IMG/VR virus record: IMGVR_UViG_3300025450_000023
From: an uncultured virus (IMG/VR IMGVR_UViG_3300025450_000023)
Lineage: Duplodnaviria; Heunggongvirae; Uroviricota; Caudoviricetes
DNA: 64,000 nucleotides
Strand: one strand, 5' to 3'
Shown: piece after piece, positions 1,349 to 29,800 of the stretch
Layout of the letters: the number at the start of each line of letters is the position of its first letter
How positions within the stretch are numbered: the first letter of the stretch is position 1
The notes under the pieces: generated by a model
The model's input: the letters and a program-made list of their open reading frames with translations, nothing else
Databases searched by the model: none
What the model was told of the DNA's origin: nothing
Made by a program: the position numbers and the translations under genes

Positions 1349-2390
1349 TTTAAGAATCGGTATATTTTCTGATCCGCACTACGGTGTTCACCGTAATAGT
1401 GAAACATGGCACAAGATTGCTTTGGAGCACGCTAAGTGGGCTGCTGAGCAGTTTAAACAACAAGGCATAAAAGATATACTAATACCTGGAGACATATTTC
1501 ATGATCGTAATGACATTGCTGTTAACACTCTTCACGTGGTTACTGACATTTTTGATGTATTGCGTGATTTTAACATCATTGTTACCGTGGGTAATCACGA
1601 TGCTTACTACCGTGATAATTCTTCAGTTAATTCCGTATCCATACTTCGTGGCTGGAGTAATATTACTGTTATTGATAAGCTTACGGTCGAAACGCTCCAA
1701 GGAAAGAAAATAGCATTCTGTCCATGGGGTCAAGATATTAACGAAGTACCTAAATGTGATCTAATTGTAGGTCATTTTGAAGTTAATAGCTTTAAAATGA
1801 ACTCTTATAAAGTATGTACTAACGGGCTTAAGACTTCTGATTTAACTGATAGAGCACCTTTAACTATTACAGGTCACTTTCACCATAGAGAAGAACGCAA
1901 ATACAAAGATGGTACTATTCTTTATGTTGGGTGCCCGTATCAACAGGATTGGGGTGATTATGGTACTACTAAAGGTTTATACATTTTAGATTTAAAAGAC
2001 TTAAGTTACGAGTTTATTGTTAATAACATATCACCACGCTATAACAAGATTAAATACTCTGAAATAGCTAATGGTGTATATACAGCTGAATCTTTAAAAG
2101 GCTTTATACGTAACAATATAGTAAAATTTTACATAGATAAACAACTTACACCTGAAGTAGTAGATAATATTGTTAGAAAGATTGCTTCAATTAAACCTGT
2201 CGAGCTTACTTTAGAATACGATTATTCAGAACTATCTAAGCTTAATGTAGAAGAAGCTAATACCAAGGATTTTAGTATTAGTGTTGAAAACTCTATATCA
2301 GAATTCATTGATTTATTAGATGTTAATCATAAGGATAAGGTAAAGAGTTACGTAACAGATTTATACCATAGAGCATTAACAATAACATGA
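1335..2390 (+). CDS. 47: recombination nuclease gp47 (Mre11/SbcD-like)
   Basis: SDPHYG, GDIFH, GNHD and GHFH metallophosphoesterase motifs. Confidence 0.9.
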   Translation: MTITNLRIGIFSDPHYGVHRNSETWHKIALEHAKWAAEQFKQQGIKDILIPGDIFHDRNDIAVNTLHVVTDIFDVLRDFNIIVTVGNHDAYYRDNSSVNSVSILRGWSNITVIDKLTVETLQGKKIAFCPWGQDINEVPKCDLIVGHFEVNSFKMNSYKVCTNGLKTSDLTDRAPLTITGHFHHREERKYKDGTILYVGCPYQQDWGDYGTTKGLYILDLKDLSYEFIVNNISPRYNKIKYSEIANGVYTAESLKGFIRNNIVKFYIDKQLTPEVVDNIVRKIASIKPVELTLEYDYSELSKLNVEEANTKDFSISVENSISEFIDLLDVNHKDKVKSYVTDLYHRALTIT

Positions 2391-3184
2391 AAATAGGAGC
2401 AGCAGTAATAGCATGTGATAGATTGGAATACACTAAACAGTGTGTTGCAAGTATACTTGCGAATAAAGGCCCGTTAACTGATATTATTTTAATTAATGAT
2501 GGTATTAAAATACCAGATGGTGCATTACCTGATGGTATTGAAATAATGAACAATAGACCGCCATATCAATCAGTTGGGAGAGCTAAAAATAGAGCTATGC
2601 AGGTGTTAGTCAATAGAGAATGTGAACATATATTTCTTGTTGAAAATGATATTTTAATTCAAACACCTGATGTTTGGCAAAAATATATAGATACTGCTAA
2701 TGGTACAGGTATACGTCATTTAAATTTCGGTTATCATGGACCAGCCAACAGAACACCAGATTATAGTAAACCAAATCCGAGGTATATTGTAGAATACCCA
2801 AATAATATAAAAGTTGCACTTAATTTTCATTGTGTTGGAGCGTTTTCGTATTTTCATCGTCAATTTATGACAGATGTTGGTTATCATGATACATTTTTTC
2901 AAAATGCATGGGAACACGTAGAGCTGTGTCAAAGAGCAATTAAGAAAAACTATTTGCCTGCATTTTGGTGGTTTCCAGATGTAGAAGGTAGTGATGAATT
3001 ACTTAAAGAAATACCAGGCTCTATACAAAACAGTTCTATTACACATACCGAAAAATGGACTGAAAATATGTATAAAGGTGCTGATCATTACAGAAAGATA
3101 CACGGTGTATCAGCTGTAGAAAACCCTGATACCGGTCTTTCTGTAGTACTACAACGCTTAAAAGAAATTTATAAATGCAAGTAA
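2387..3184 (+). CDS. GT-A (family 2-like) glycosyltransferase
   Basis: IACDR, LINDG, VGRAKN, LVEND and WEHVE pattern. Confidence 0.75.
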   Translation: MKIGAAVIACDRLEYTKQCVASILANKGPLTDIILINDGIKIPDGALPDGIEIMNNRPPYQSVGRAKNRAMQVLVNRECEHIFLVENDILIQTPDVWQKYIDTANGTGIRHLNFGYHGPANRTPDYSKPNPRYIVEYPNNIKVALNFHCVGAFSYFHRQFMTDVGYHDTFFQNAWEHVELCQRAIKKNYLPAFWWFPDVEGSDELLKEIPGSIQNSSITHTEKWTENMYKGADHYRKIHGVSAVENPDTGLSVVLQRLKEIYKCK

Positions 3185-3963
3185 CACATTTAGGTATAAC
3201 TAACGTAAAGCGTAGTGGTTATGGGTTTGGTAATCAATTATTTTTAATTGCAAGTACGATAGGTATTGCTATCAGCAATAATTTAAAGTATGGTTTTGCA
3301 GAATGGAGTAATAATCGTTACTTTAACGAGCAGTTACCGGGTTTAGCGCCAGGAACAGGTAATATTGTAAAAGAACAGAGCTTTGATTATAACCCGGTAG
3401 TGTTGCCAAAAAATACATTTACATACCTTGAAGGTTATTTTCAAAGTGAAAAATACTTCAGTTCTCCTGAAGCAAAAAACACAATACGCAATTTCTTTAC
3501 ATTTAAAAATGAGTATATACAACCAATAAAAGACTCTTTAAATGGTATAACCAATACATGCTCTATACATGTACGTCGCGGAGACTATTTAAAATACCCT
3601 GATATACATGTACAGCAACCTGAAACCTATTGGTATAACGCTCAACTTAAAGTTGAAAGCTTAACCACTGTTAACACTTATATAGTAATGTCTGATGACA
3701 TAAATTGGTGTAAAGAAAATAAACAACTGTTTACTAAAACAGGTAAAAAGGTATTATTTATGCAAGGTAGAAACGACATGGATGATTTTGTTATGATGTC
3801 TTTGTGTAGCAACAATATAATAACTAATTCCTCCTTTTCATGGTGGGCAGCTTGGTTAAACACAAATAGAGATAAAGTTGTTGTTATGCCCAAACAGTGG
3901 TTTGGTATTAACGGGCCATCAGATGGTAAAGATTTGCAAGCAGAGGGGTGGATAAAAGTATGA
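3175..3963 (+). CDS. GT11 alpha-1,2-fucosyltransferase-like
   Basis: GNQLF, GYFQSEKYF, HVRRGDY and NSSFSWWAAWL. Confidence 0.9.
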   Translation: MQVTHLGITNVKRSGYGFGNQLFLIASTIGIAISNNLKYGFAEWSNNRYFNEQLPGLAPGTGNIVKEQSFDYNPVVLPKNTFTYLEGYFQSEKYFSSPEAKNTIRNFFTFKNEYIQPIKDSLNGITNTCSIHVRRGDYLKYPDIHVQQPETYWYNAQLKVESLTTVNTYIVMSDDINWCKENKQLFTKTGKKVLFMQGRNDMDDFVMMSLCSNNIITNSSFSWWAAWLNTNRDKVVVMPKQWFGINGPSDGKDLQAEGWIKV

Positions 3964-4781
3964 AAAAAGAATTATACATAAAAGACTCTAATTTCGGTCA
4001 CTGCGCGTTTAGTAATAATCCAACACCACCAGTAAGCATTTCTGAACATATAATATGGAACCGCAGCGACGCTCCACATGGAACTGATGTGGTGTGTACT
4101 GATTACCAATTAGATAAAGGCAATATTGCATGGTTATTAGAACCTTATGAAATTAACCCACAGCCATATGAGTATGTCAAAGCTAATTCAGCTTTTTATA
4201 AAGAAATATGGACACACGATAAAGAGTTTTTGTCTTTACCAAACGCTAAATGGTATCCGGTTGGAGGGTGTTGGTTAGAAGTACCTGAAAGAAAAATATA
4301 TGAAAAGAGCAAAATGTTCTCTATTATAGCTTCGAACAAAAACCAACTGCCCGGTCACAAATTAAGACATCAAATAATACAAGCCGCTGGTAATAAGGTG
4401 GATGCTTTCGGTCCTTCCTATATTCAGTTTAAGAAAAACCCCATGCATAAAATAGAAGGATTAGCGGATTACCGATATCATTTTGCAATTGAAAACTGTA
4501 AGAGAGATTTTTATTTTACAGAAAAGCTTATTGATACCTTGATGTCTGGTACAATTCCTATATACTGGGGGTGTCCTTCTATTGATAAATTCTTTAATAC
4601 TGATGGTTTTATTATCTTTAATGACTTGTATGATTTAAAAGAGAAGCTTAAAAATTGTACAGTAGAATTATACGATAGTAAGAAAGCAGCTATTGAAGAA
4701 AACTTTAAATTAGCACAAAACTATATTTTATCAGAAGATTGGATATATAACAATATATTACAAAATGAAAAGACAATTTGA
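3960..4781 (+). CDS. GT10 fucosyltransferase-like
   Basis: YRYHFAIEN..YFTEKL.D...GTIPIYWG motif. Confidence 0.8.
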   Translation: MKKELYIKDSNFGHCAFSNNPTPPVSISEHIIWNRSDAPHGTDVVCTDYQLDKGNIAWLLEPYEINPQPYEYVKANSAFYKEIWTHDKEFLSLPNAKWYPVGGCWLEVPERKIYEKSKMFSIIASNKNQLPGHKLRHQIIQAAGNKVDAFGPSYIQFKKNPMHKIEGLADYRYHFAIENCKRDFYFTEKLIDTLMSGTIPIYWGCPSIDKFFNTDGFIIFNDLYDLKEKLKNCTVELYDSKKAAIEENFKLAQNYILSEDWIYNNILQNEKTI

Positions 4782-5079
4782 TACAGGTGCACAAAGAGAC
4801 ACTGATGTTGGCAAACCAAGAGTTAGCCTGGTGCCTCATGAAGAATTAATGAGAGTGGCAAGCCACTTTGTTGTAGGCGGGCAGAAGTACGGTTTCAATA
4901 ACTGGAAGAAAGGTATGAATACGTCAGTATATTATGACAGTGCACAGCGTCATTTAATGAAATACTGGCAAGGAGAAGACAGTGAGGATCATGCTGCAGC
5001 TGCTGTGTGGAATATTATGTGTATGATGTGGACGGAAAAAAATAAACCAGAATTAGACGATAGAAAAGAATACCAATGA
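4765..5079 (+). CDS. dATP/dGTP diphosphohydrolase (DUF5664-like)
   Basis: GAQRD..GKPR.SL.P, G.QKYG.NNW.KG, RHL and EDH.AA..WN. Confidence 0.8.
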   Translation: MKRQFDTGAQRDTDVGKPRVSLVPHEELMRVASHFVVGGQKYGFNNWKKGMNTSVYYDSAQRHLMKYWQGEDSEDHAAAAVWNIMCMMWTEKNKPELDDRKEYQ

Positions 5080-5831
5080 AAATTGATTTAAAAAACCTAA
5101 CATTCACAATACCTGTCAGAATTGATAGTGATGATAGAGCATTCAATCTCAACTATGTTATCGAGTATTTGTTACACAATTTTGATACTAATATAATTGT
5201 GTATGAAAACGGACCTAAACCTATATTTAAAAATAAATACAGTATTACACATGTTTATGAACAAAATGACGGTGTGTTTCACCGTACTCGTTATCTTAAC
5301 AATATGGCTAAGCAAGCCACAACTGATTTTATAGCTAATTATGATTGTGATGTAATATTTCCTGTAAAACAAATTGTAAAAGCATATAATTTATTAAAAA
5401 GCAATAACTTAGACTGTGTATATCCTTATAGTGGTTATTTTGTTAACATTAAACGTGATGTTTTAAAGGAAATTGTAAACTTAGACCCGGCTAACTTAAA
5501 CCCTGATACATATCAAAATTTCGGTAAAAATTCCTTTGGTGGTGCTGTATTTTGGTACAAAAAAGCCTTTATAGAGGGTGGAATGGAAAATGAAAATTGT
5601 GTATCTTGGGGCTGTGAAGACTGGGAACGGTTAAAGCGTTTTGAAATACTTGGTTACCGTATTGCAAGAGTAAATGGTCCTTTATATCATATTGATCATG
5701 TAAGATCTCAAGATAGCAGTGAAGCTAACCCATATTATAATAATAATAGAAAAGAATTCGATAAAGTATTAAATGCTAAAAAAGAAGACTTACTAAGATA
5801 CGTCAGCACATGGCCTTGGGCTAAATTATAA
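5076..5831 (+). CDS. GT2/GT7-like glycosyltransferase
   Basis: DCD motif, GGMENE..SWG.ED and LYHIDH. Confidence 0.8.
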   Translation: MKIDLKNLTFTIPVRIDSDDRAFNLNYVIEYLLHNFDTNIIVYENGPKPIFKNKYSITHVYEQNDGVFHRTRYLNNMAKQATTDFIANYDCDVIFPVKQIVKAYNLLKSNNLDCVYPYSGYFVNIKRDVLKEIVNLDPANLNPDTYQNFGKNSFGGAVFWYKKAFIEGGMENENCVSWGCEDWERLKRFEILGYRIARVNGPLYHIDHVRSQDSSEANPYYNNNRKEFDKVLNAKKEDLLRYVSTWPWAKL

Positions 5832-6657: not shown

Positions 6658-8481
6658 ATGCGTTATGTTTATTTCAAACATTTAAAAATTACTAATTTCC
6701 TGTCTGTAGGTAAAAGACCGGTAGTTGTAGATTTTAAGCCTGGACTAAATATTATTACAGGTAAAAATTATGATAAAGCTGATAGAGCGAATGGCGTTGG
6801 AAAGTCCACTATTGCTGACGCAGTGCATTTTGCTCTGTACGGTAGCACTATACGCGATCTTAAAAAAGAAAACATAGTAAACGATCAAGCACCGGATCAG
6901 TTGTGTGAAGTCGAGCTTGAATTTACTTATCAGCAAGATGGTATTAATAATGAATGTCGAGTGCTAAGAACACTTAACCCCACTAAATGTTTCTTCTTTA
7001 TTAATGGTGAAGACGTTACCAGATCTGGTGTACCGCAAACTACAGAGTTGATAGTCGACACTATTAAAACCTCTTCTGAAATATTTCAGAACAGTGTTGT
7101 TATGACAATTAATACCACTGTACCTTTCATGGCACAGAAGAAGATCGAGAAACGCAAGTTTATTGAAGGCATACTTGGTTTAGAAGTGTTTAGTAATATG
7201 TTAAGTTTTGCACGCTTTGATTATAATGAAGCAAAACGCTTACTTGATATTGAAAGTACAAAAGTAGAAGAAACTAACAGATCTTTAGCAGACGCGATTA
7301 AACAAAAAGAAACTTATGAAGACACTAAAAAGAAAAGACTTGAAGTTCTATTAACACGTCAGTCTAACAATGCTAAGGAACTGGCAGGTATAGATGAAAA
7401 GCTTAACAGTTTAGAGTCAGTAGATACAGTAGCAGAAAAGCAAATACAAGATAAGCTATCTACATTAAAAACAGCTGAAACAGCATGCGACCGTAAAATA
7501 GCTACTATAAACAAGCTTATTACTGAAGCGGAAACACATATCAAACTTAATAATGATCGTATTAAAAAGCTAAAGAAGGTAGATAGTAAATGCCCTCATT
7601 GCGGTAAAGACTTAGCTGAAGCTGTAAACACTCAATATGAAAAAGATAAAGCGGAGTGTCAGACTGAAATACAAAAGTACACAGAGGTTATTGATACACA
7701 AAAGCCGCTTTTAGTAGAAGCACAAGAGCAATTAGATAAAGTTGAAAAGGCTATAGTAACAATTCAGAAGAAAATAAACGACTTTAATATTCGTAAGAAA
7801 GAAGTAGAAAACATTAATAATCGTGTTAAGCAACTCAATGAGTGGCAATCTTCATTAGTCGTAGATATAGATCAGCTCAACAAAGACTCTAATAACTATC
7901 AAGATATTATAGATGCTATTGTTACAAGGCAAAACGAGACTAAAAAACAAATTAGCTCTTTACAAGAAAGAATAGATATAGTTGAGTCTGCTAAGTTTAT
8001 TGTGGACGAAGAAGGAGTGAAGTCGTATATTGTTAAAAAGATACTACAAGTATTAAACATGCGTTTAGCACAATATTTGCGTAGACTTGAAAGCAATAGT
8101 ATCGTTACATTTAACGAGTTTTTTGAAGAGACTATTACCAACGAGCGTGGAAGTCAGTGTAGCTATTTTAACTTTTCCGGTGCAGAGCGTAAAGCTATCG
8201 ATCTTGCAATGTTATTTACGTTTCAAGATATCCGTAGAGCACAGGCTGATGTTTGGCTTAACTTGAGTATGTTTGATGAATTATTTGATTCATCATTGGA
8301 TGAAAAAGGTATTGAGTTAGTACTTGATATTCTTAAAGAAAGGGTAGATAATTACAATGAATCAATTTATATTATTTCTCACCGTAAAGAGAGTAAAAAA
8401 TACTGTATCGGTGGTGAAATCGTATATCTTGAAAAGAAAAACGGCATAACAACAAGAACAACAACTTATGATATTTCCTAA
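6658..8481 (+). CDS. 46: recombination ATPase gp46 (Rad50/SbcC-like)
   Basis: NGVGKST, CPHC zinc hook in coiled coil, FSGAE, DELFD and ISH. Confidence 0.93.
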   Translation: MRYVYFKHLKITNFLSVGKRPVVVDFKPGLNIITGKNYDKADRANGVGKSTIADAVHFALYGSTIRDLKKENIVNDQAPDQLCEVELEFTYQQDGINNECRVLRTLNPTKCFFFINGEDVTRSGVPQTTELIVDTIKTSSEIFQNSVVMTINTTVPFMAQKKIEKRKFIEGILGLEVFSNMLSFARFDYNEAKRLLDIESTKVEETNRSLADAIKQKETYEDTKKKRLEVLLTRQSNNAKELAGIDEKLNSLESVDTVAEKQIQDKLSTLKTAETACDRKIATINKLITEAETHIKLNNDRIKKLKKVDSKCPHCGKDLAEAVNTQYEKDKAECQTEIQKYTEVIDTQKPLLVEAQEQLDKVEKAIVTIQKKINDFNIRKKEVENINNRVKQLNEWQSSLVVDIDQLNKDSNNYQDIIDAIVTRQNETKKQISSLQERIDIVESAKFIVDEEGVKSYIVKKILQVLNMRLAQYLRRLESNSIVTFNEFFEETITNERGSQCSYFNFSGAERKAIDLAMLFTFQDIRRAQADVWLNLSMFDELFDSSLDEKGIELVLDILKERVDNYNESIYIISHRKESKKYCIGGEIVYLEKKNGITTRTTTYDIS

Positions 8482-9631
8482 TAACGGCTTAGTAATCGGT
8501 GCACCGCAAATGCCTCTTGGGGCACCTGCTTTTGGTAGCCCGGTGGTTGATACACCACTTCCAGTAATGGAGACACCAGGTGGTATGAAACGTGCAGTGA
8601 GTTTTGCTGCAGACCATCAAGGTTGTGGTTTCTGGCGTATGCATTGGCCTGAATCAGTTATTAATGCACATCAATTAGGTATTATTAATAACAATAACTT
8701 TATGATTTTACAGGAGAACTTCTATCAAGGTATTTCTTCTGTAAGAATACAAAGACAAGTTACCCCCACTCAATTACAATTTGTAAAGTTCTTAAAGAGT
8801 ATTTCAGAAAAAACTAATAATTTTAAGATATATTATGAAATTGACGATGTAATATTTCCTGAAGATATTCCTTTATATAATAAGGCTCGTGAAGCATTTG
8901 TTGATCCAAGTATTGGTAAAACCGCTATCGAGATAATGCAGCTATGTGATGGCATTACTGCTCCAACTGAGTATATGGCTAAGTATTATCAGGAGAAGTC
9001 AGGTGTACCTGGTATTGTATTGCCTAACTATATGCCGAAGTTCTGGATGGATAGGTTTTATAATAAGACTAAGATATCAGAAAATTACGAAACCAACAAG
9101 CGCCGACCACGTATTGGTTATATCGGTAGCCCTACACATTTTAATGTTGCAGGGGTGCCTGGAATTAAAGACGATTTCGGTGATATATTGGATGTCATTA
9201 AGAAAACAGTCAAGCAGTTTAAATGGGTATTAATGGGCGGTTGCCCACAAGAGCTTGCAGACTATGTACGTAGTGGTGATATAGAGTATATTGGTTGGAC
9301 GAAACTCTGGGATTATCCCTATGCATTCAATGCTTTAAACGTTAATATGGTAATAGCTCCATTACAGAATAATAGGTTTAATTTAGCTAAAGCCAATATT
9401 AAACACATTGAAGCTGGTGCATTAGGTATACCTTGTGTTTGTCAAAACTTAGAACCATATAAAAACGCTCCATTGAGATTTGATACAGCAGATGAAATGG
9501 TAAGTGTTATCAAGAAAACATTAAGTGATCGCCGTACATATCTAACCGAATCGGATATTGCTCGTAAAAATGCTACAAAATATTGGTTAGAAGACCATAT
9601 AGATGAGTATTGCAAAGTATATTTCTCTTGA
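8468..9631 (+). CDS. GT-B glycosyltransferase
   Basis: GCGFWR, YEIDD and APL..NRFN.AK.NIK.IE.GALG.P motifs. Confidence 0.75.
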   Translation: MIFPNNGLVIGAPQMPLGAPAFGSPVVDTPLPVMETPGGMKRAVSFAADHQGCGFWRMHWPESVINAHQLGIINNNNFMILQENFYQGISSVRIQRQVTPTQLQFVKFLKSISEKTNNFKIYYEIDDVIFPEDIPLYNKAREAFVDPSIGKTAIEIMQLCDGITAPTEYMAKYYQEKSGVPGIVLPNYMPKFWMDRFYNKTKISENYETNKRRPRIGYIGSPTHFNVAGVPGIKDDFGDILDVIKKTVKQFKWVLMGGCPQELADYVRSGDIEYIGWTKLWDYPYAFNALNVNMVIAPLQNNRFNLAKANIKHIEAGALGIPCVCQNLEPYKNAPLRFDTADEMVSVIKKTLSDRRTYLTESDIARKNATKYWLEDHIDEYCKVYFS

Positions 9632-9663
9632 TATTTTTGTGGAAGGTCACATAATAATGACCT

Positions 9664-12228
9664 GTGTATCGTAACATTTATTACAGTCAACGAGATAGTA
9701 TGTGTCATCTCTTTACGTGGGATGAGAATGGTAAGCGTGTAATCAAAAAAACACCTTATCAGCCTTATTTTTATGTAGAGACAAATGCTGAAACAGCTGA
9801 TGCTTTATCTATCTTTAATACTAAGTTAAAGAAAAAAGTATTTAAGAGTAACTTTGATCGTAATAAAGCTGCACAAGACGGCGCCATTAAACGTCTATAT
9901 CACAATATTCAGGTAGAGCAACAATTTCTTATTGAGCAGTTTAAAGACGAATACGAAAAACCTGAGTTTTCTGCTAACCCATTAAAGGTTTGCTTTCTTG
10001 ATATCGAAGTTTATTCACCGGATGAGTTCCCTGAAGCTAAGGATGCAAAGCATCCTATCAATCTGTTAACTATATATGATAACCTTTCTGAACACTTTTA
10101 TACCTGGGGTTGTAAGCCTTATACTCCGACTCGTGATAACGTTATATACACTCAATGCACAAGTGAATATAACCTTTTAGAAAAGTTTTTAGAGTTCTGG
10201 GAAAGCGGTTATTACCCTGATATACTATCAGGGTGGAATACAGACTTTTTCGACTTCCCTTATTTAATTAACCGTATTAATAACTTATTAGGAGAAGACG
10301 CAGCTAAGAGGTTATCCCCAGTAAAAAGTCTTTGGTGTCGTAAAGGTATCTTTGTTAAAGGTCAAGAGTTAGATCGTTGGTATATTCATGGTATATCTGC
10401 AATGGATTATCTCGAAGTGTACAGAGGTTTTGCTCGCGGTTTGTTAGAGTCGTATGCACTAAACTTTGTGGCACAACACGAATTAGGTGAAGGTAAATTA
10501 GCTATCAACGCTACCAACTTAGCTTCTCTATCTGAAAACGACTGGAATAACTTTGTAGATTATAATATTCAAGACGTTGACCTGTTAGTACGAATGGAAA
10601 AGAAACTGCAATTCTTTAAGATTATTCGTATGTTAGCTTACAAAGGACTAACCTCGTTTGAAGCAGCTTTAGGTAAAGTTTCTATTGTTACCGGGTGCGT
10701 TGCACTACAAGCATATAAACACGGTATGGTTATACCAACATTCGTTGAAGGACCTCTACGCGAGGAAATTCAGGGTGGTTTCGTAAGAGAACCAGAAAGA
10801 GGCCTACAAAAGTCTATAGTAAGTTATGACGCTAACTCACTATACCCTAATACCATTATTACCTTGAATATATCCCCGGAGACTAAGTTCGGTAAAATAG
10901 TTAGTAAGAGTGATACTGAAGTGGTTATTCGTTACGGTAATAACAAAGAGCAGCCACTATCGCATGAAAAGTTTATACAGTTTATGCAGGTTGAAAAACT
11001 TGCTCTATCTAAAGCAAATGTACTATACACGCAAAAGAAAAAAGGTGTGGTGCCTGCATTAATTGATGGGCTGTATAAAGAGCGTGTAACCAATAAAAAT
11101 CAGTACGTCGAATTTAAAAAGAAACTAAGTAAGTTAACTACAGATACAGATGAGTACAAAACGTGTAAGTTTAATATGGAACGAGCTGACACCATTCAGC
11201 ACGTTATCAAAATTCTTCTTAACTCCATTTACGGTGTTTTTGCTAATAAGTTTAGCCCTATTTGCGATAGTGATCACGCCGGTAGCATTACTCTTACTGG
11301 TCAGTCAGTGGTTAAGCAAGCAAGTGATATCATTGATCAATACGCTAAGGAAAGGTTTGGCTACACTGGTAAATCGTTAACTATATATAACGATACGGAT
11401 AGTACTCACGTTACTATTCAACCTTTATTAGATCAAATGAAGTTAAACATATTAACTGAAAACAAGGTTAATAAAGAAGGTTTAAAGTTCATTGATGACG
11501 AATTAGGTGTATATCTTAACGAACATATTAAACAATGGGCTAAAGATAAACTCAACTCAATAGACCCACGCTATTTCTTCAAACGTGAATCTATCTGTGA
11601 TGTAGGAGTATACCTTGAAAAGAAACGCTACATTATACATGTATTAAATGACGAAGGTGCAGATGTTAGTAAGTTTAAATATGTTGGTGTTGAAATTGCA
11701 CGTTCTACTACCCCTAAGAAAGCTAAAGAACTAATTAAAAAGGTTATTGAGAATAGCTTATTAGTACAAGATCAAAATAAAGCAAACACTATTTATAGAG
11801 ACGTTTATGATGGGTTTAAATCATTATCTATTGACGATGTAGCTATTAGAGGTGGTTTAAGTGATTTAGAAAAACATGAAGTACGTTCAGAAGGGTTTAA
11901 AATAGCTAAAGGTACACCTAATCATGTCAAAGGAGCTATTTGGTATAACATGCTATTAAAACATAGAGGGTTAGAAACAAAGTACGAACGCATTACTTCA
12001 GGTGGTAAGGTAAAGAAGATTTATATTGCGCCTAACAGGTATAATATTGATACTCTTTGCTACCCTGTTAGTTTTCCACCAGAATTAAACGATTTTCAAG
12101 TTGATTATGAAGAAATGTTCGATACAATTATAGTACCTCCAGTAAAAGCAGTTTATGAAGCTCTTAACTGGCAGTTACCACAAGTAAACAATCAAGCACA
12201 AACAGACTTATTTGACCTATTCACATGA
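9664..12228 (+). CDS. 43: family B DNA polymerase gp43
   Basis: ExoI DIE, GWN..FD.PY, DANSLYP, KILLNSIYG and YNDTDS; GTG start. Confidence 0.96.
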   Translation: MYRNIYYSQRDSMCHLFTWDENGKRVIKKTPYQPYFYVETNAETADALSIFNTKLKKKVFKSNFDRNKAAQDGAIKRLYHNIQVEQQFLIEQFKDEYEKPEFSANPLKVCFLDIEVYSPDEFPEAKDAKHPINLLTIYDNLSEHFYTWGCKPYTPTRDNVIYTQCTSEYNLLEKFLEFWESGYYPDILSGWNTDFFDFPYLINRINNLLGEDAAKRLSPVKSLWCRKGIFVKGQELDRWYIHGISAMDYLEVYRGFARGLLESYALNFVAQHELGEGKLAINATNLASLSENDWNNFVDYNIQDVDLLVRMEKKLQFFKIIRMLAYKGLTSFEAALGKVSIVTGCVALQAYKHGMVIPTFVEGPLREEIQGGFVREPERGLQKSIVSYDANSLYPNTIITLNISPETKFGKIVSKSDTEVVIRYGNNKEQPLSHEKFIQFMQVEKLALSKANVLYTQKKKGVVPALIDGLYKERVTNKNQYVEFKKKLSKLTTDTDEYKTCKFNMERADTIQHVIKILLNSIYGVFANKFSPICDSDHAGSITLTGQSVVKQASDIIDQYAKERFGYTGKSLTIYNDTDSTHVTIQPLLDQMKLNILTENKVNKEGLKFIDDELGVYLNEHIKQWAKDKLNSIDPRYFFKRESICDVGVYLEKKRYIIHVLNDEGADVSKFKYVGVEIARSTTPKKAKELIKKVIENSLLVQDQNKANTIYRDVYDGFKSLSIDDVAIRGGLSDLEKHEVRSEGFKIAKGTPNHVKGAIWYNMLLKHRGLETKYERITSGGKVKKIYIAPNRYNIDTLCYPVSFPPELNDFQVDYEEMFDTIIVPPVKAVYEALNWQLPQVNNQAQTDLFDLFT

Positions 12229-13031
12229 TTAAAATATCTCACGAATCTCCTTTAAGTATGCTCGAGATCTCTCGTACATACAACGATTACTGCTACGCTT
12301 TAGTGCACCTCTTCGAAACTCACCCAGAATATTACAAGTTCTTTGAAGATAGTGTTAAAATGGGTAGACATGTCTTATTAGATAATTCTATCTTTGAATT
12401 AGGTGAATCTTTTAATCCTAAACGCTATGCTTATTGGATTCAAAGACTTAACCCTACAGAGTATATCATACCAGACGTATTGGAGGATTGTAATGGTACA
12501 ATTGAGTCTGCTAAGAAATGCTTATGGAGAGAATGGGACTTTGTTAACGATTCTAAAACTATCGGCGTGGTACAAGGTAAAACTTATGCTGAATTAGTTA
12601 AATGTTATGTAACTTTAGATCAAGAAATTGATGTAGATAAGTTAGCTATTTCATTTGACTATTCTTATTATCTCAAACTATTTCCGCACCCTAACAAATG
12701 GGTATCTTATATGATGGGTAGAGTAATGACTCTTAATCAATTAATGAATGATGGTATTATTAATAAAGATAAAACTCATCATTTATTAGGCTGTGCACAC
12801 CCAAGAGAATTTAGTTTTTATCAAGGACCTGAATATAATTGGATTGAAACATTAGATACATCATCTCCTATTGTTCACGGTATTAAAAGAGTAAGATACT
12901 CTAATGCTATTGGTAACTGGAAAAAGGAGTCTACTAAGCTTGTAGATCTTTTAGATGTAATACCGGATGCAATGCAAGAAAAAATCATTGCAAATAATTT
13001 AATTGAGTTTAGAAACTACGTTAATGGATGA
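12225..13031 (+). CDS. dpdA: TGT-fold 7-deazaguanine transglycosylase, DpdA-like (probably DpdA3 type)
   Basis: LLDNS.FE, PDVL, GVVQG, HLLG and DTSSP TGT-like motifs; between gp43 and queF. Confidence 0.7.
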   Translation: MIKISHESPLSMLEISRTYNDYCYALVHLFETHPEYYKFFEDSVKMGRHVLLDNSIFELGESFNPKRYAYWIQRLNPTEYIIPDVLEDCNGTIESAKKCLWREWDFVNDSKTIGVVQGKTYAELVKCYVTLDQEIDVDKLAISFDYSYYLKLFPHPNKWVSYMMGRVMTLNQLMNDGIINKDKTHHLLGCAHPREFSFYQGPEYNWIETLDTSSPIVHGIKRVRYSNAIGNWKKESTKLVDLLDVIPDAMQEKIIANNLIEFRNYVNG

Positions 13032-13258
13032 CAACGTTAGAAGCTATAACTAATTCCGTCCATGCTAATTATCCCCACCTCCTGGCAAATAATATTTCTA
13101 TTAGGGATTATTGTTTTTGGGATTGTATTCGTAATTGTGAAATCCCTGTAAGAGAGTTAACCGAAGTTAAACCTTACCTAATAAAACACGGTATTATTGA
13201 CTTTACACTTGTAATTTTCTTTAGTGATAATACAATAGGTTATCGCTTAAAAATATGA
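13028..13258 (+). CDS. hypothetical protein
   Basis: 76 aa ORF with 4-nt overlaps to both neighbours. Confidence 0.55.
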   Translation: MTTLEAITNSVHANYPHLLANNISIRDYCFWDCIRNCEIPVRELTEVKPYLIKHGIIDFTLVIFFSDNTIGYRLKI

Positions 13259-13833
13259 AACGTACCCTAATATGGAAAACCTTTTTCTCTCAGAGCGGAT
13301 CTGAGATATACGAGATATCTAAAAATATTGGTAGGTTTCCGGATGCAATCATAACTAATAAAAGCTTCGAAGACATGGATAAGATTAATCCTGATCTCTT
13401 AGAAAAGTGTTTTGATCGTTTTATTTTCTTACCTAAGAAACCAACAGTAGAAGAATATAGAGAAGCTATAAGGAACGCTGATATAATTACCCTTCACGGC
13501 TATCTTCGTATATTACCGCCACAGATCTGCGGTAGGTTCAAGATATACAACGGACATCCAGGTCTTATAACTAAGTTTCCTGAACTAAAAGGTAAAGACC
13601 CACAAGCTAAAGTATGGTATAAACATTTTGAAAAACCTTATAAACTACACGGGCACGTTATTCACGAAGTTATACCAGAAGTAGATGCTGGTAGAGTGAT
13701 ATCCGAAAAAGAGTTCTTTAGTAACAATATCTATAACGAGTTTAACAGTTTAAACGAATATATTGGTAGACTACATAAATTAGCAATCGAAAATTGGGTT
13801 GGCTTTATGCGCAAAAGCCTATTAAATAAATAA
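13255..13833 (+). CDS. PurN-like formyltransferase, putative preQ1 formyltransferase (DpdN-like)
   Basis: LHGYLRIL, NGHPG and H.V.PEVDAG formyltransferase motifs; context of dpdA/queF. Confidence 0.8.
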   Translation: MKRTLIWKTFFSQSGSEIYEISKNIGRFPDAIITNKSFEDMDKINPDLLEKCFDRFIFLPKKPTVEEYREAIRNADIITLHGYLRILPPQICGRFKIYNGHPGLITKFPELKGKDPQAKVWYKHFEKPYKLHGHVIHEVIPEVDAGRVISEKEFFSNNIYNEFNSLNEYIGRLHKLAIENWVGFMRKSLLNK

Positions 13834-13836
13834 CTT

Positions 13837-14415
13837 ATGAGATCAAATTATAAAGCTGCAATCTGTGGTGCTCATTCACAAGGCAAAACTACTTTGGTTA
13901 AAGCTCTAAAAGAGAATGCTAATCTTACAAGTGATTATCATTTTAGTTTTAGAACTAATTTAACAAGAGGTTTAAAAGATCTTAATGTACCTATTAATGA
14001 AGGTGGTACCTCTTTAACTCAATATCTGGTAATGTCTCGTCATTTAGAGTATGGTTTAACTCCAGGTAACTGGATCTTAGATAGAGGTGCTTTAGATGGG
14101 ATTGCATATACAACTTATTTTTATGAAAAAGGACAAGTACATAAAGATGTTTATCAAGCTGCTTTAGTTGTATACGAAGAAATGTTAAGGACTTATGATA
14201 AGATTTTTTATGTTGTACCTGAACTTAGTATCAAAGAAGACGGAGAAAGAAGTACAGGTAAAGAGTTTTTTGATGGTGTTGTAAATCAATTTGATTTTTA
14301 TCTTAAACATCATTCAATGCCTGCTGATAAACTTGTTTATGTAATGGGATCATTAGAAGACAGAACTAAAATTGTAATTGATAATATAAAGAAAGATTTT
14401 ACCAATGAGTTATAA
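13837..14415 (+). CDS. P-loop nucleotide/nucleoside kinase-like protein
   Basis: GAHSQGKTT Walker A, LDRG.LD and EDGER lid. Confidence 0.75.
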   Translation: MRSNYKAAICGAHSQGKTTLVKALKENANLTSDYHFSFRTNLTRGLKDLNVPINEGGTSLTQYLVMSRHLEYGLTPGNWILDRGALDGIAYTTYFYEKGQVHKDVYQAALVVYEEMLRTYDKIFYVVPELSIKEDGERSTGKEFFDGVVNQFDFYLKHHSMPADKLVYVMGSLEDRTKIVIDNIKKDFTNEL

Positions 14416-15325
14416 TACTAATAATATTGACAAAGTACTTGGTCAGAGAGTTGATTCTCCTACCACCTACACGCCTGAGATTTTAGTGCGTGAAGAACGC
14501 CAACGTAATCGTACCTATTTAGGTTTACAGAACGATTCTTTACCATTCGTAGGTTACGATATTTGGAACGGTTATGAATGTAGTGCATTAACAGATAATG
14601 GTTTACCAGTTACATGCGTAGCTAAGGTAATTTATTCTGCTACTAATGATTTCATTGTTGAATCTAAATCAATGAAGCTTTACTGGAACTCATTTAACAT
14701 GCAAAAGATGGGTAAGAATACTAAAGAAGTACTTAAGAACATTAAGCAAACAGCTTCTAAGGACTTATCTCTATTATTAGAAACTGATGTTAAAGTAGAG
14801 CTATTTCCACAAATTATAGATATTACTACTGAAGAAGCGCGTAATGTTTGGCTCGGAGATTATAATCCGCAGTCATGGTTAGCTCTCGAAAAGATTAAAA
14901 GTGCTGAAAAGGTTAAATTTACAGTGTTTAACGAGAATGCTGATCTTTTAGTTGCAAACGACGCTGAAGTGTCTAAACCTCATTTCTATATGAGTACTTT
15001 ATTACGTTCTAACTGTAAGATTACTAAGCAGCCAGATTCTGGTGATATCTTTATTTATTATAAAGGTGATAAAGAAGTAACAGAACAATCCTTATTAGAG
15101 TGGATCGTATCATTCCGTAATGAATGTCATTTCCATGAAGAAATATGTGAAGCTGCTTATAAACGTTTATGGGACTTGTTACAACCAGAAGAGCTTATGG
15201 TGACTTGTTTCTATGCTCGTCGTGGTGGTTGGGATATTGTTCCTACTCGCGCATCAAATAAAAAATTACTTGATCAAAATCTTATCAACATAAAGTTCCC
15301 GTACTTTAAATTTCCTCGTCAATAA
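14405..15325 (+). CDS. queF: 7-cyano-7-deazaguanine reductase QueF (bimodular type)
   Basis: VESKSMKLY.NSF, SNC.IT.QPD, FHEE.CE and YARRGG. Confidence 0.93.
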   Translation: MSYNTNNIDKVLGQRVDSPTTYTPEILVREERQRNRTYLGLQNDSLPFVGYDIWNGYECSALTDNGLPVTCVAKVIYSATNDFIVESKSMKLYWNSFNMQKMGKNTKEVLKNIKQTASKDLSLLLETDVKVELFPQIIDITTEEARNVWLGDYNPQSWLALEKIKSAEKVKFTVFNENADLLVANDAEVSKPHFYMSTLLRSNCKITKQPDSGDIFIYYKGDKEVTEQSLLEWIVSFRNECHFHEEICEAAYKRLWDLLQPEELMVTCFYARRGGWDIVPTRASNKKLLDQNLINIKFPYFKFPRQ

Positions 15326-15361
15326 ACTTGATTATAATAAAAACTATATTAATATAACTAT

Positions 15362-15712
15362 ATGAACCCAGATCAAATCATTGTATTCCTTGATAACATA
15401 CAACGCACTATTGTTGCTACATACGTAAGCGATGATAAAAATAGTATCGTTGTTAGTAAACCTGCAATCTTGAATGTTACACCTTCTCAAGATAAAAAAC
15501 TACAAGTACAACTCTATCCTTTAATGTTTAGAGAATTTTTTGCAGATCGTGACGTATTCCCAACCTGGACATACAGTAAATCCCAGATCGTTTTAGCAGG
15601 TAATTTAAACCTTGAAGCAAATCTTACAGCACAGTATGTAGAGATGTTTAAGATTACTAAAAACGAACCTGCTCCAACTATTAAGCTATTTGACGCAGAC
15701 GATAATAGCTAA
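15362..15712 (+). CDS. hypothetical protein
   Basis: 116 aa ORF upstream of uvsX, preceded by a promoter-like sequence. Confidence 0.6.
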   Translation: MNPDQIIVFLDNIQRTIVATYVSDDKNSIVVSKPAILNVTPSQDKKLQVQLYPLMFREFFADRDVFPTWTYSKSQIVLAGNLNLEANLTAQYVEMFKITKNEPAPTIKLFDADDNS

Positions 15713-16874: not shown

Positions 16875-16905
16875 AAAAAAGCTAAGGGAAACCTTAGCTT
16901 TTTTT
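16875..16905 (+). terminator. intrinsic terminator (bidirectional shape)
   Basis: A6-GCTAAGG-GAAA-CCTTAGC-T7. Confidence 0.85.
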
Positions 16906-22411: not shown

Positions 22412-22741
22412 ATGGCTAACAAGATAACAACTCAAAGTTATTTTATTAAAAGACTTAAAGACTCTGGTTATATGGTTTATAAGATCTTTGATGAATACGG
22501 TGAAGCTGATCCTCGTTCGTGGACTGTAATGATTGATCCAGGCAATGCTTCAGTATTTTGTACATGTTACGTTAATCATCATGGTATGTTTGGCGAAACA
22601 TTTTTTGAATTTTATGACGGAGGTCAATATATTCCTGAGCGATTTAAGTTGAAAACTGACTCGATCGAGGTTATAATAAGCTATTTAGTAAAATATGGAA
22701 TCAACAACAAATCAGAGTTATACAACGGGCGAACAATTTAA
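22412..22741 (+). CDS. hypothetical protein
   Basis: 109 aa ORF in operon. Confidence 0.6.
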
Positions 22742-22760
22742 GTCCGTAAAATCTTTTAAC

Positions 22761-23420
22761 ATGGCAAATAAAGTAAAACACCCAATACTTCCTACTGCTA
22801 ATAGCAGTATGATAACTACAGAAGAAGATAGAAAAGCTATTATTGATAACGCAGCAGAAGCTTATGCAGACTTTCTCGACGCTTTGCGTATTGATTGGCG
22901 TAATGATGTCAATAGTGCCGACACACCACGTCGTGTAGCTAAGGCATATGTATGTGATCTTATTAAAGGTTGCTATGAGGGGCCACCAAAGATTACTACA
23001 TTCCCTTCAGACGGTTATGATGGTATTGTTAGTCAGATGAACATACCTGTAGTATCTATGTGTTCACATCACCATCTATCATTTACCGGTGTTGCACATG
23101 TAGCTTATATTCCTGATAAAAATGGTCAAGTTATTGGTCTATCTAAACTTAATCGTATTGTAGAACATTATGCTCGTCGCCCTCAAATACAAGAAGGCTT
23201 AACAGTTCAGATTCATAAAGCTATTGATCAACTATGCACAGGCAATCAGGGCGTAGCAGTTATTCTTAAATGCTCTCATACTTGTGCTTGCCATCGTGGT
23301 GTAAAGCATCATGGTTGTGCTATGATTACCTCTAAGTTATCTGGGGATTTTATGAACGAACCACAAACTCGTAAAGAGTTCTATGATTTTGTTGCTTCCG
23401 CTGAACGAGACACTAAATAA
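22761..23420 (+). CDS. folE: GTP cyclohydrolase I
   Basis: TPRRVAK, SMCSHH, GLSKL.R, RRPQIQE and H.C...RGV. Confidence 0.95.
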
Positions 23421-27435: not shown

Positions 27436-28212
27436 TTAGTTTTTACAATATTGCAGCATGTGCACGTATTTGGGTAGATACGTCTCATGCTGTATGTGAT
27501 CAAATTCCATATTTGATCTAAAGAATATATCTTTACCCTGTTCTATAGCTTCTTTAATTTTTTCCGGGTCAGTGTATTTTGCGTTGTTATATTCTTGGTG
27601 AGAAAAGTTTTTAATTTTTCTTATTATTGCATTTACATCCCCGAAATAAGAAAAGTGCCAACCGGTTACTTGGTTGTGTAATGTAATATCAGCTATAGTA
27701 AATCTACTATTTCTAAGCTGTTGCATGTCTGAACCTGATTGTGTAAAAGTAGCTGCATCTACTACTACAGTACCAGGCCACAGGTTTTTACATCTGCATT
27801 TTGTATTATAATAATAAAAGTGTTGTAAGAACTTATATTGACCGTGTAAATTTGCATTACGTAATTGTTTTAACACATTAGTATCAGGTATTTCGTCTAC
27901 GTCTGATAATAATATTAGGTCATCATTGTTTAATACAGGTAAACCAGTTTGTAAGAATTTTCTTTGACCTATTTCATTAGCCCATGCATCTGTAGAAGAA
28001 TATAGCATATTGTTAGGTACATATTTTATTTTATCTGAAAACACTACAAACTTTTCAGCTATTTTAGGATAAAGTAGTTCTTTCTTATCTCCTTTAAATG
28101 TATACTCGCATTCAGTAATAATAAAAAGATCTACGTGGTCATATAATTCATGTAACCGAAAATTTAACATATCGGATTCCCCATTATACATTATACAATC
28201 ATAAATATTCAT
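27436..28212 (-). CDS. GT17-like N-acetylglucosaminyltransferase
   Basis: YDC..YN.E...L..RL.EL, SDVDEIP and GWHFSY. Confidence 0.85.
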   Translation of the reverse strand: MNIYDCIMYNGESDMLNFRLHELYDHVDLFIITECEYTFKGDKKELLYPKIAEKFVVFSDKIKYVPNNMLYSSTDAWANEIGQRKFLQTGLPVLNNDDLILLSDVDEIPDTNVLKQLRNANLHGQYKFLQHFYYYNTKCRCKNLWPGTVVVDAATFTQSGSDMQQLRNSRFTIADITLHNQVTGWHFSYFGDVNAIIRKIKNFSHQEYNNAKYTDPEKIKEAIEQGKDIFFRSNMEFDHIQHETYLPKYVHMLQYCKN

Positions 28213-28445: not shown

Positions 28446-28520
28446 GCGGGGTTAATTCAGTGGTAGAATATCTGCTTGCCAAGCAGGATGTCGGCGGTTC
28501 GAGCCCGCCACTCCGCTCCA
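28446..28520 (+). tRNA. tRNA-Gly(GCC)
   Basis: cloverleaf, anticodon loop TTGCCAA, GGTTCGA T-loop, encoded CCA. Confidence 0.93.
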
Positions 28521-28529
28521 ATTCCTATT

Positions 28530-28754
28530 ATGAACAGTCACCTCATATCTTTATTAAAAGCTACTACCTACAGAGTGTTAGGTAGTCTTGCAACATTTTT
28601 AATTAGCTACCTTTTAACAAAGCGTGCTGACCTGTCTTTAGGTATAGCGGGTATAGATTTTTTTGGTAAAATAGCATTATACTATTTACACGACAGAGTG
28701 TGGAGTGTAATACTCGCTAAAAAAACTAAAAAACCTAAAAAAGTAAAAGTTTAA
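28530..28754 (+). CDS. DUF2061-like small membrane protein
   Basis: KA.TYR..G ... YY.HDR.W; start moved downstream of tRNA. Confidence 0.75.
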   Translation: MNSHLISLLKATTYRVLGSLATFLISYLLTKRADLSLGIAGIDFFGKIALYYLHDRVWSVILAKKTKKPKKVKV

Positions 28755-29164
28755 ATCTTTAAACTTTCAGGTTTGGTAGCACGAATATATACCTCGCCCC
28801 AAACTTCTAACTCCCCCATAAGAGCTTGAAACTCTTTTTGAGATAATTTATCTAAATTTGCTAACTTAGCATAAACCTCTTCTGCCATTTTTTTATAGTG
28901 AGCATTTGCTTTATCGCAATCTTTATTAGGATCTTTTTCCATTTTCTCACATTCTGCATAAGGTTTAGCTTTAGCAGCAAAATGAATAGCTGTTAATGTA
29001 GCAAAACCACCCTTTTCTTTTGAACTATGTGCAATCTTAGCAGCTCCAGCAGCTCTTTTTTCTAAGAATTGCTTCAATGCTTCTTCTGTTTCGGGTTCAG
29101 GTTGAACACGTTTTTCAAGCATTAATTGATACTGTTCTGCTAAAACTTTAAGCTGGCTATTCAT
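28751..29164 (-). CDS. hypothetical protein, possible internal head protein
   Basis: 137 aa; N-terminal LKVLAEQY; TAAGTA upstream. Confidence 0.6.
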   Translation of the reverse strand: MNSQLKVLAEQYQLMLEKRVQPEPETEEALKQFLEKRAAGAAKIAHSSKEKGGFATLTAIHFAAKAKPYAECEKMEKDPNKDCDKANAHYKKMAEEVYAKLANLDKLSQKEFQALMGELEVWGEVYIRATKPESLKI

Positions 29165-29208
29165 GGTAAATATATTATATTACTTATTGTTCTTTAACAT
29201 ATTTTAAT

Positions 29209-29591: not shown

Positions 29592-29595
29592 TTTT

Positions 29596-29699: not shown

Positions 29700-29711
29700 T
29701 ACATTTTTTTT

Positions 29712-29796: not shown

Positions 29797-29800
29797 TTTT

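Follow-up and report, generated by a model that had tools for sequence, protein, structure and literature searches.

What does a virus make with a transglycosylase, a formyltransferase, a kinase and a preQ0 reductase encoded in close succession behind its DNA polymerase, and on which substrate do these enzymes act? The question is raised by IMG/VR record IMGVR_UViG_3300025450_000023 (Caudoviricetes), an uncultured virus of which a stretch of 64,000 nucleotides was analyzed (the window; positions refer to it unless another locus is named). At 12225–15325 on its plus strand, five translationally coupled genes directly follow the gene for a family B DNA polymerase (PolB). Judged from its genes, this module is very probably the core of a 7-deazaguanine DNA hypermodification system of the formyl-preQ1 (fdPreQ1) type, an estimate that covers identity and end product; the route by which the base would enter DNA is weighed separately below. 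The fdPreQ1 system type itself is already published (PMC10516641), and what the present locus adds is a lineage, the linkage to a kinase, and fusion proteins. The polymerase and the genes of the module are as follows.

9664–12228, plus strand: PolB, family B (T4 gp43-like) DNA polymerase (PF00136, E 6.9e-23; PF03104, E 1e-16; phrog_262, E 4e-190)
12225–13031, plus strand: DpdA3, predicted minimal transglycosylase of the tRNA-guanine transglycosylase (TGT) fold, 268 amino acids (aa; structure model, homology to phage immuto_2-6A)
13028–13258, plus strand: open reading frame (ORF) of 76 aa, specific to the PolB-linked clade (length and codon-position bias in relatives)
13255–13833, plus strand: DpdN, putative formyltransferase of the PurN superfamily, 192 aa (PF00551, E 1e-07)
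13837–14415, plus strand: AAA_28 P-loop kinase of the (deoxy)nucleoside/deoxynucleoside monophosphate (dNMP) kinase fold, 192 aa (PF13521, E 3.6e-10)
14405–15325, plus strand: QueF, bimodular NADPH-dependent preQ0 reductase, 306 aa (PF14819, E 1.1e-27; PF14489, E 6.8e-19)

Gene content of the polymerase-linked module

The initial annotation had described these ORFs as having overlapping or near-abutting stops and starts, and reading the junctions from the sequence bore this out for every one of them: a 4-base ATGA overlap joins PolB to DpdA3, DpdA3 to the small ORF and the small ORF to DpdN, a 3-base gap separates DpdN from the kinase, and the kinase gene runs 11 bases into QueF. The sole strong terminator-like hairpin between 6000 and 18500 lies at 16875–16904, 3′ of UvsX, and promoter-like sites were not enriched over shuffled sequences (47 vs. 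51.6 ± 7.6 expected). Megablast of positions 12000–15500 against phage records gave no match, relatives being visible at the protein level only. A search with DpdN returned 50 viral loci (73–100% identity), all of which keep the order glycosyltransferase–PolB–DpdA3–small ORF–DpdN–kinase–QueF–orf116–UvsX for those genes that lie inside the fetched stretches. As this order recurs in 50 related viral contigs as well as in phage immuto_2-6A, it is not a product of chance.

The protein encoded at 12225–13031 is inconspicuous in sequence searches: it matched no Pfam family at E ≤ 0.1 (PF01702, TGT, included), no NCBIfam family and, as a single sequence, nothing usable in the PDB, while its homologues match only DUF6610 in Pfam, and weakly (E 0.001–0.005). 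It is, however, 49.4% identical over 100% of its length to the ‘DNA guanine transglycosylase’ of immuto_2-6A, given as DpdA3 (YP_010114477.1) in table DS1 of PMC10516641. A structure model built on 107 homologues is a TIM barrel with a pLDDT of 96.3. Among the matches listed by Foldseek against the PDB, 50 of 50 were tRNA-guanine transglycosylases (best E 8.7e-09), and the best VIA matches were ArcTGT (Z 17.7), TGT (Z 16.5) and the DNA preQ0 insertase DpdA, PDB entry 7UI4 (Z 16.5; 233 residues aligned), as compared to Z 14.8 or less for unrelated TIM barrels. Cap10, in an entry titled as a complex with the modified protein CdnD, was a lower TGT-like match (Z 14.1).

The top PDB sequence match of the DpdA3 family profile is again 7UI4, at an E value of 0.21 that is not significant alone. 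In this alignment, HLLG (186–189) and D211 fall onto the HLLG…SIDS residues of 7UI4, and Q117 onto the histidine of its GVAHG stretch. The residues to which roles have been assigned in the bacterial enzyme (bDpdA), namely Asp95, Phe99, Asp130, His181, Leu236 and Asp256 (PMC10164549, as far as its consulted sections go), would thus correspond to D53, F57, D84, Q117, L188 and D211 of DpdA3, with the SIDS aspartate taken to be Asp256 if the deposited chain bears a 20-residue tag. This makes D211 the predicted nucleophile, L188 the predicted stacking residue and Q117 the predicted Watson–Crick reader; from spacing (D-x-x-x-F) and conservation, D53 and F57 would serve as acid/base and gate, and D84 as the aspartate that recognizes the base. 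All 107 DpdA3 sequences keep D53, D84, L188 and D211. In the model, therefore, the TGT fold that had been called from the letters alone is confirmed, with the catalytic aspartates kept. Since no conserved Cys/His cluster is present, DpdA3 appears to be devoid of the zinc subdomain of TGT: no Cys is invariant (C127 comes close, in 97 of 107 sequences), and the protein stops at residue 268. The isoelectric points of six DpdA3 homologues (4.9–6.1) make too weak an argument against DNA binding to be used here. Among phages known for 7-deazaguanine, the DpdA3 family profile matched phiST (CGPG_00065, E 4.5e-25) and gave no match in JenP1, Iggy, HVTV-1 or Rosebush; JenP1 and Rosebush presumably carry other DpdA subfamilies.

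For the formyltransferase gene, the PF00551 match spans residues 73–153 only, and the score against the PurN equivalog TIGR00639 is 36.2 bits, with a cut-off of 150.1. Its best match in phage records is the DpdN of immuto_2-6A (YP_010114479.1; 43.4% identity, 94% coverage), so that the earlier proposal of a DpdN rather than a true PurN stood up. A profile of 26 family members aligns at positions 5–166 to Campylobacter jejuni PurN (5cjj_A, E 1.2e-12), and N99, H101 and D144, the equivalents of the catalytic N-x-H and D of PurN, are invariant in 26 of 26. The alignment includes the N-terminal S-x-x-G-S loop, which in PurN holds the substrate phosphate. Other invariant residues are specific to the DpdN family (W7, Q13, E17, an ELKGKDPQ stretch and W181). 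The reaction predicted for DpdN is formylation of the aminomethyl group on preQ1, or on its (deoxy)nucleotide or DNA form. Two metagenomic proteins of 447 aa each (P0139, P0245) are DpdA3–DpdN fusions.

The last gene of the module is unambiguous from its sequence: both Pfam QueF domains score above cut-off, and the closest solved structure is the bimodular QueF of Vibrio cholerae (3bp1, E 1.9e-33), with which the SNC-x-IT-x-QPD (containing the catalytic Cys), ESKS-x-KLY and FHE stretches align, in agreement with the initial annotation. PHROG 5949 and the GenBank product field of the immuto homologue call this protein ‘GTP cyclohydrolase’ (14405–15325; L005:11007–11927), probably a misnomer that goes back to the shared T-fold.

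The 76-aa ORF matched no Pfam, PHROG or NCBIfam family. It is 231 nt long in each of 12 relatives, where substitutions favor third codon positions, and 43 of 44 close loci spanning its position have it (L046 is without it); in architectures without PolB linkage it was not detected.

Precursor supply, predicted end product and possible substrates of the base exchange

The window belongs to a viral contig of 82,476 bases (G001), where it begins at base 9912, and the genes that would supply the module with preQ0 are scattered over this contig. QueD (PF01242, E 6.4e-18), QueE and QueC (PF06508, E 2.8e-21) lie 4–10 kb upstream of the window start. QueE has a weak Pfam match (Fer4_12, E 1.9e-4) and matches the annotated QueE of immuto (phmmer E ≤ 1e-4). 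Two further genes of the window are relevant to precursor and nucleotide pools.

22695–23420, plus strand: FolE, GTP cyclohydrolase I, first step of 7-deazaguanine synthesis (PF01227, E 1.5e-47; phrog_2197, E 3.9e-62)
4765–5079, plus strand: dATP/dGTP diphosphohydrolase N-terminal family protein, 104 aa (PF18909, E 1.2e-25; phrog_801 ‘dATP / dGTP pyrophosphohydrolase’, E 9.3e-26)

The full preQ0 pathway (FolE, QueD, QueE, QueC) thus appears to be encoded on the contig. According to established family functions, these four enzymes would convert GTP to preQ0, and QueF would reduce preQ0 to preQ1. DpdN would then transfer a formyl group to the aminomethyl nitrogen, as also predicted in the literature, and DpdA3 would exchange guanine for the 7-deazaguanine at C1′ of the (deoxy)ribose by the double displacement typical of TGT, although the order of these last two steps may differ. 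Phage DNA would thereby come to carry fdPreQ1 in place of G and be resistant to restriction enzymes. The 104-aa diphosphohydrolase-like protein, for which no PDB sequence match was found, is a possible accessory to the module.

The assignment to a formyl-preQ1-type module, put forward from the sequence at the outset, draws support from the gene set, from synteny with immuto_2-6A, from the folds, from the conserved catalytic residues, from the DpdA3–DpdN fusions and from the recurrence of the module in 72 further DpdA3 loci. Several points weigh against it. Identity to the characterized system is only 33–49%, so that substrate or product could differ, for instance in carrying another acyl group; the chemistry is known from immuto_2-6A, and for the clade of the window the product is a prediction from genes, just as the activity of DpdN is predicted for all members of that family. 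QueF, at 221.6 bits (E 1.4e-65), scores below the cut-off of 293.45 of the NCBIfam equivalog TIGR03138, and the QueC gene is cut by the contig end. As the contig is ~39% complete (CheckV), further modifying genes may lie outside it. Finally, the activity of DpdA3 could not be reconstituted in Escherichia coli (PMC10516641, in the sections consulted).

Two readings would leave the module without its formylated product in DNA. Were the TGT-fold protein to modify tRNA, for instance the phage’s own tRNA-Tyr(GUA), with preQ1 or a derivative, the DNA would be canonical; a tRNA-Tyr with anticodon GTA is indeed encoded at 29712–29796, and G34 of such tRNAs is the usual target of TGT enzymes. We regard this as extremely unlikely: DpdA3 has neither a PF01702 match nor a zinc subdomain or invariant Cys and measures just 268 aa, the module is linked to polymerase genes and lies 15 kb from the tRNA cluster, and the syntenic system of immuto_2-6A acts on DNA, in which it replaces all G (PMC10516641, consulted text), making a role in tRNA modification improbable and a DNA target the better reading, as initially annotated. 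Alternatively, the formyltransferase could be a real glycinamide ribonucleotide (GAR) transformylase, that is, an auxiliary metabolic gene, leaving plain dPreQ1 in the DNA. The intact catalytic triad and the PDB matches of the DpdN profile, the best 18 of which are all PurN enzymes, are in line with this, but the score far below the TIGR00639 cut-off, the two fusions to DpdA3 and the 45 of 50 loci in which DpdA3 and the kinase flank it are not; moreover, immuto_2-6A DNA was reported, in the same consulted text, to contain fdPreQ1 and no dPreQ1. A GAR transformylase is thus highly unlikely.

With formyl-preQ1-type DNA modification as the favored outcome, the kinase becomes informative as to how the base gets into DNA. 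The protein matches AAA_28 with 40.7 bits (cut-off 27) and, despite the thymidylate kinase name it bears in PHROG and GenBank, has no match to PF02223 (thymidylate kinase) at E ≤ 0.1; a single-sequence search of the PDB gave nothing usable. Its model (pLDDT 90.8) resembles, about equally among the matches listed, thymidylate kinases, deoxyadenosine and deoxycytidine kinases, and the ribosylnicotinamide kinase domain of NadR. Companions of DpdA3 were tallied in 50 loci whose sequence extends for 2.5 kb or more beyond this gene on its downstream side (36 after dereplication at 90% DpdA3 identity), all of them relatives at ≥50% identity and hence not phylogenetically independent.

Kinase downstream of DpdA3: 49 of 50 loci; 35 of 36 dereplicated
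QueF downstream of DpdA3: 49 of 50 loci; 35 of 36 dereplicated
DpdN downstream of DpdA3: 45 of 50 loci; 32 of 36 dereplicated

Of the genes tallied, none accompanies DpdA3 more faithfully than the kinase: it is no less constant than QueF, and DpdN is missing more often. It is retained in loci without DpdN (L085, L114, L124, L125), one of which (L085) also lacks QueF, and is joined to DpdA3 in a metagenomic fusion protein of 473 aa (P0255). The one true exception is L129, which has DpdA3 and QueF without a kinase, and a CxxCxxCC metal-binding protein upstream. In phage records, kinase matches at E ≤ 1e-17 come from 14 Campylobacter and 4 Flavobacterium records, all of DpdA3 phages. The kinase profile matches the window’s contig (two copies), immuto (one) and Campylobacter phage CP220 (two); nothing was found at E ≤ 1 in the control phages JenP1, Iggy, HVTV-1 and Rosebush, and there was no match in phiST. 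In the latter, CGPG_00066 abuts DpdA3 and narrowly reaches AAA_18 (29.8 bits, cut-off 29.4); its homology to the AAA_28 kinase was not supported (hhalign probability 2.5%, P-loop only). A neighbor of DpdA3 in a Bacillus phage may be a remote relative of the kinase (hhalign probability 51%). The labels ‘NadR’ and ‘polynucleotide kinase’ on distant DpdA3 homologues of Bacillus phages might hint at a fusion but are treated here as misannotations, the gene encoding only 262 aa and no kinase domain. The prediction of a DpdA3–kinase complex (score 0.01, mark 0.32) carries weight neither for nor against an interaction. The word ‘kinase’ is absent from the main text of PMC10516641, and a text search of its supplement retrieved neither that word nor the accession of the immuto kinase.

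Additional AAA_28 copies exist. On the window’s contig, the second one (236 aa, 22% identical, E 2e-10) is encoded upstream of the window on the minus strand (L003:3235–3945), adjoining QueE and QueD, and in CP220 it is found between topoisomerase and dUTPase genes.

Whether DpdA3 exchanges bases in DNA or on nucleotides divides the evidence about evenly: to each scheme we assign a chance slightly short of even, the remainder going to mixed or other schemes. In the published scheme, DpdA3 acts on replicated double-stranded DNA as a transglycosylase, replacing G there by preQ1 or formyl-preQ1, with DpdN acting on the free base or on DNA, and the kinase being either a general dNMP kinase or an ATP-using helper like DpdB. 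Most characterized TGT-superfamily enzymes among the matches have polynucleotides as substrates, the top folds being TGT, ArcTGT and bDpdA, and the active-site residues of bDpdA map onto DpdA3. As bDpdA requires ATP hydrolysis by its partner (PMC10164549, consulted sections), an ATP-binding companion is compatible with exchange at the DNA level, and a post-replicative origin has been proposed for all reported 7-deazaguanine DNA modifications (PMC10516641, in the text consulted). That argument, however, rests on the presence of DpdA genes, and DpdA3 was inactive in the E. coli model; in addition, replacement reaches 100% in DpdA3 phages as opposed to 30% or less in other subfamilies (same source). 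The partner of DpdA3 has the fold of a small-molecule nucleoside/dNMP kinase, not the ParB fold of DpdB, and is even fused to it in P0255, and DpdA3 itself is reduced to a barrel of 268 aa that lacks a conserved Cys/His zinc motif.

The other scheme, in turn, would have DpdA3 swap the base on a free guanine deoxynucleotide or deoxynucleoside, making it the first TGT-fold enzyme to do so; DpdN would formylate the nucleotide, the AAA_28 kinase and host nucleoside diphosphate kinase would raise it to the triphosphate for incorporation by the adjacent polymerase, and a dGTP pyrophosphohydrolase would empty the dGTP pool. The position of the kinase directly downstream of DpdA3 in nearly all tallied loci, its persistence without DpdN or QueF, its adjacency in CP220 and the fusion P0255 speak for this, as do the kinase-profile matches, which were obtained in the window’s contig, immuto and CP220, and in none of the four phages that lack DpdA3-profile matches. 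All three phages measured at 100% replacement have a nucleoside triphosphate pyrophosphohydrolase gene no more than three genes away from DpdA3, namely PRA-PH in immuto, HD in CP220 and, two genes further upstream than CGPG_00066, MazG in phiST. The window has its dGTP-diphosphohydrolase-family gene, and in phiST the AAA_18 P-loop gene abuts DpdA3. DpdN, furthermore, retains the full scaffold of PurN, an enzyme that uses a ribonucleotide. On the other hand, no enzyme of the TGT family is known to us to use free nucleotides. Large phages commonly encode kinases and pyrophosphohydrolases, so that the linkage could reflect a general clustering of nucleotide-metabolism genes, and the tallied loci are not independent; L129 does without the kinase, the phiST neighbor shares the P-loop only and escapes the kinase profile, and the pyrophosphohydrolase-like gene of the window is 7 kb away and encodes only 104 aa. 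The 7-amido-7-deazaguanine (ADG) nucleoside has been reported in the cytoplasm of CP220-infected cells (PMC10516641, consulted text), consistent with exchange below the DNA level, and yet bDpdA too needs an ATP-hydrolyzing partner, albeit of a different fold (PMC10164549, likewise). A literature search retrieved no paper proposing a nucleotide route for DpdA3 phages, Crippen et al. 2019 lying outside that search.

Kinase linkage and fusions thus pose a testable problem for the current model, namely how DpdA3 reaches complete replacement. Were DpdA3 to use nucleotides, this would account for complete replacement being seen in DpdA3 phages only, for the stripped-down barrel and for the failure of the E. 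coli DNA assay, and would provide enzymes for making 7-substituted 7-deaza-dGTPs.

Distribution and variant architectures

The DpdA3 family comprises 1633 representatives at 50% clustering (E ≤ 0.001), 268 of them at E ≤ 1e-30. A search with the DpdA3 profile confirmed 545 stretches, from which the best 80 (50–100% identity) were taken; eight of these were already among the loci of the DpdN search, and the other 72 were analyzed as L059–L130. These 72 loci fall into at least four architectures.

Architecture 1: PolB-linked, as in the window
Architecture 2: QueE–FolE–x–DpdA3–DpdN–kinase–QueF–QueC
Architecture 3, immuto-like: QueD–QueE…FolE–PRA-PH–DpdA3–DpdN–kinase–QueF…PolA
Architecture 4: QueD–DpdA3–DpdN–kinase–QueF–QueC–QueE

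The initial annotation had called the operon polymerase-coupled. This holds for the clade of the window, where the 4-base PolB/DpdA3 overlap is found in 10 of 10 dereplicated clusters, but not elsewhere: in other lineages the module lies 2.8–4.7 kb from a family A polymerase (eight clusters), beside Pol III alpha (L124, L129), or with no polymerase within 6 kb. In the latter two lineages (L124:4270–5045 and 9958–12789; L129:5337–6008 and 8855–12523), the Pol III alpha gene is of the DnaE type, and in L124 the genes upstream of DpdA3 include MazG and dUTPase. The distant DpdA3 (25% identity) of Bacillus phage BSTP12 and Weizmannia phage Youna2 overlaps with a PolA gene at the start of the latter. 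In one relative, a GIY-YIG-type homing-endonuclease-like ORF (267 aa, opposite strand) interrupts the PolB/DpdA3 junction (L048:4186–4970), and in P0128, DpdA3 is joined to a C-terminal part with NUMOD3.

Several loci deviate in gene content. At L085:6001–9154, where DpdA3 is 60% identical to that of the window, PolB, DpdA3, small ORF and kinase are followed by orf116 and UvsX, with neither DpdN nor QueF; this natural deletion variant should carry a different 7-deazaguanine. In L114, a locus without DpdN, the kinase ORF bears a C-terminal GNAT-like domain (L114:6123–7079; Acetyltransf_10, E 0.0023), and P0253 is a DpdA3 with an extra C-terminal domain of ~150 aa that looks GNAT-like by eye and has no Pfam match. 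Together, the two suggest an acyl group other than formyl, i.e. an undescribed preQ1 derivative. In a single lineage, an ORF resembling DUF6445/2OG-Fe(II) oxygenases (E 2.4e-10) sits between DpdA3 and DpdN (L100:6800–7465) and may add a further modification step. Such variants, with GNAT fusions in place of DpdN or a dioxygenase-like insert, point to additional undescribed 7-deazaguanine derivatives. The Que-embedded architecture includes, between QueC and QueD, a gene for a Vut_1 (YhhQ-type) transporter (L088:11569–12264) and a dCTP-deaminase/dUTPase-like gene (L088:10452–10982, L093:10554–11048, L108:7114–7605).

The virus itself is a T4-like myovirus with a G+C content of ~34%. Library scans of the window ORFs identified the family B polymerase, UvsX, a DnaB-like helicase, gp32, and sheath, tube and baseplate genes. 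The stretch was found in 20 freshwater metagenome runs, in each as contigs, and no RNA run was listed. With 50 close viral loci from the DpdN search, 545 DpdA3 stretches and these 20 runs, the window adds a new and apparently abundant freshwater lineage.

Elsewhere in the window, we noticed a sugar-handling load that is unusual for a phage, with at least 11 glycosyltransferase-family ORFs (2387–5831, 8468–9631, 27436–28212 and 33573–40141; two GT11, GT10, GT7C, GT17, three GT25, a GlcNAc transferase, a GT1-like ORF and a PHROG glycosyltransferase), a UDP-galactopyranose mutase (39029–40141) and an FkbM methyltransferase (30382–31050). The tRNA cluster at 28446–29957 comprises Gly(GCC), Tyr(GTA), Trp(CCA) and Glu(TTC). 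A collagen-triple-helix repeat protein is encoded at 60771–63998 on the minus strand (PF01391, E 2.5e-72). Near 62860–62890, within this repeat gene, the window falls 144 bases short of the contig that it otherwise matches, which is a repeat-length polymorphism or an assembly difference.

Comparison with known systems

The closest characterized system is that of the Flavobacterium phage immuto_2-6A, whose DNA was reported to contain 345,000 fdPreQ1 per 10^6 nucleotides by liquid chromatography–tandem mass spectrometry, the deoxyguanosine peak having disappeared from high-performance liquid chromatography with ultraviolet detection. The names DpdA3 (subfamily) and DpdN (formyltransferase) stem from the same work, which gives an [M+H]+ of 324.13 for fdPreQ1 and also noted three uncultured phages with the same gene set (PMC10516641, in the sections consulted). 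Its core order equals that of the window, with DpdA (gp206), a 50-aa ORF, formyltransferase (gp204), ‘thymidylate kinase’ (gp203) and QueF (gp202), at identities (tblastn) of 49% for DpdA3, 43% for DpdN, 33% for the kinase and 42% for QueF. The surroundings differ, however. In the T4-like virus of the window, the family B polymerase gene overlaps DpdA3, whereas the polymerase of immuto is of family A and encoded two genes downstream of QueF; the small ORFs (76 vs. 50 aa) share no similarity; the Que genes, scattered over the contig here, lie just upstream of the module in immuto; and gp208, the PRA-PH gene beside DpdA3 in immuto, has no counterpart at that place in the window.

Campylobacter phage CP220 (Firehammervirus) encodes a DpdA3 homologue (gp056, 42% identity) with a homologous AAA_28 kinase (gp057, 33%) as the very next gene. 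Its G is reported to be completely replaced by dADG (PMC10516641, consulted text), the end product being 7-amido-7-deazaguanine, and neither QueF nor DpdN is found beside its DpdA3. An HD-phosphohydrolase/AAA_33 kinase fusion is encoded upstream of DpdA3, and the DpdA3–kinase pair is located among tail genes and not beside a polymerase gene.

Bacterial DpdA of Salmonella Montevideo (7UI4) has the same TIM-barrel TGT fold as DpdA3, with a deposited chain of 436 residues compared to 268 aa. It was reported to modify <0.1% of G (PMC10516641, consulted text). Where the bacterial Dpd system has DpdB, a ParB-fold ATPase, as partner, DpdA3 has a protein of kinase fold; general scans of the window ORFs, which included no search aimed at DpdB, turned up no ParB-like Pfam match. 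As for PurN, DpdN has its fold and its N-x-H…D residues, but invariant residues of its own and a different genomic role. Finally, the hydroxymethyl-C of T4 and the Z base of phage S-2L offer a likeness by analogy only, the key enzymes being non-homologous: there, a pyrophosphohydrolase, an enzyme working at the monophosphate level and a dedicated kinase together bring about the complete, pre-replicative replacement of one base.

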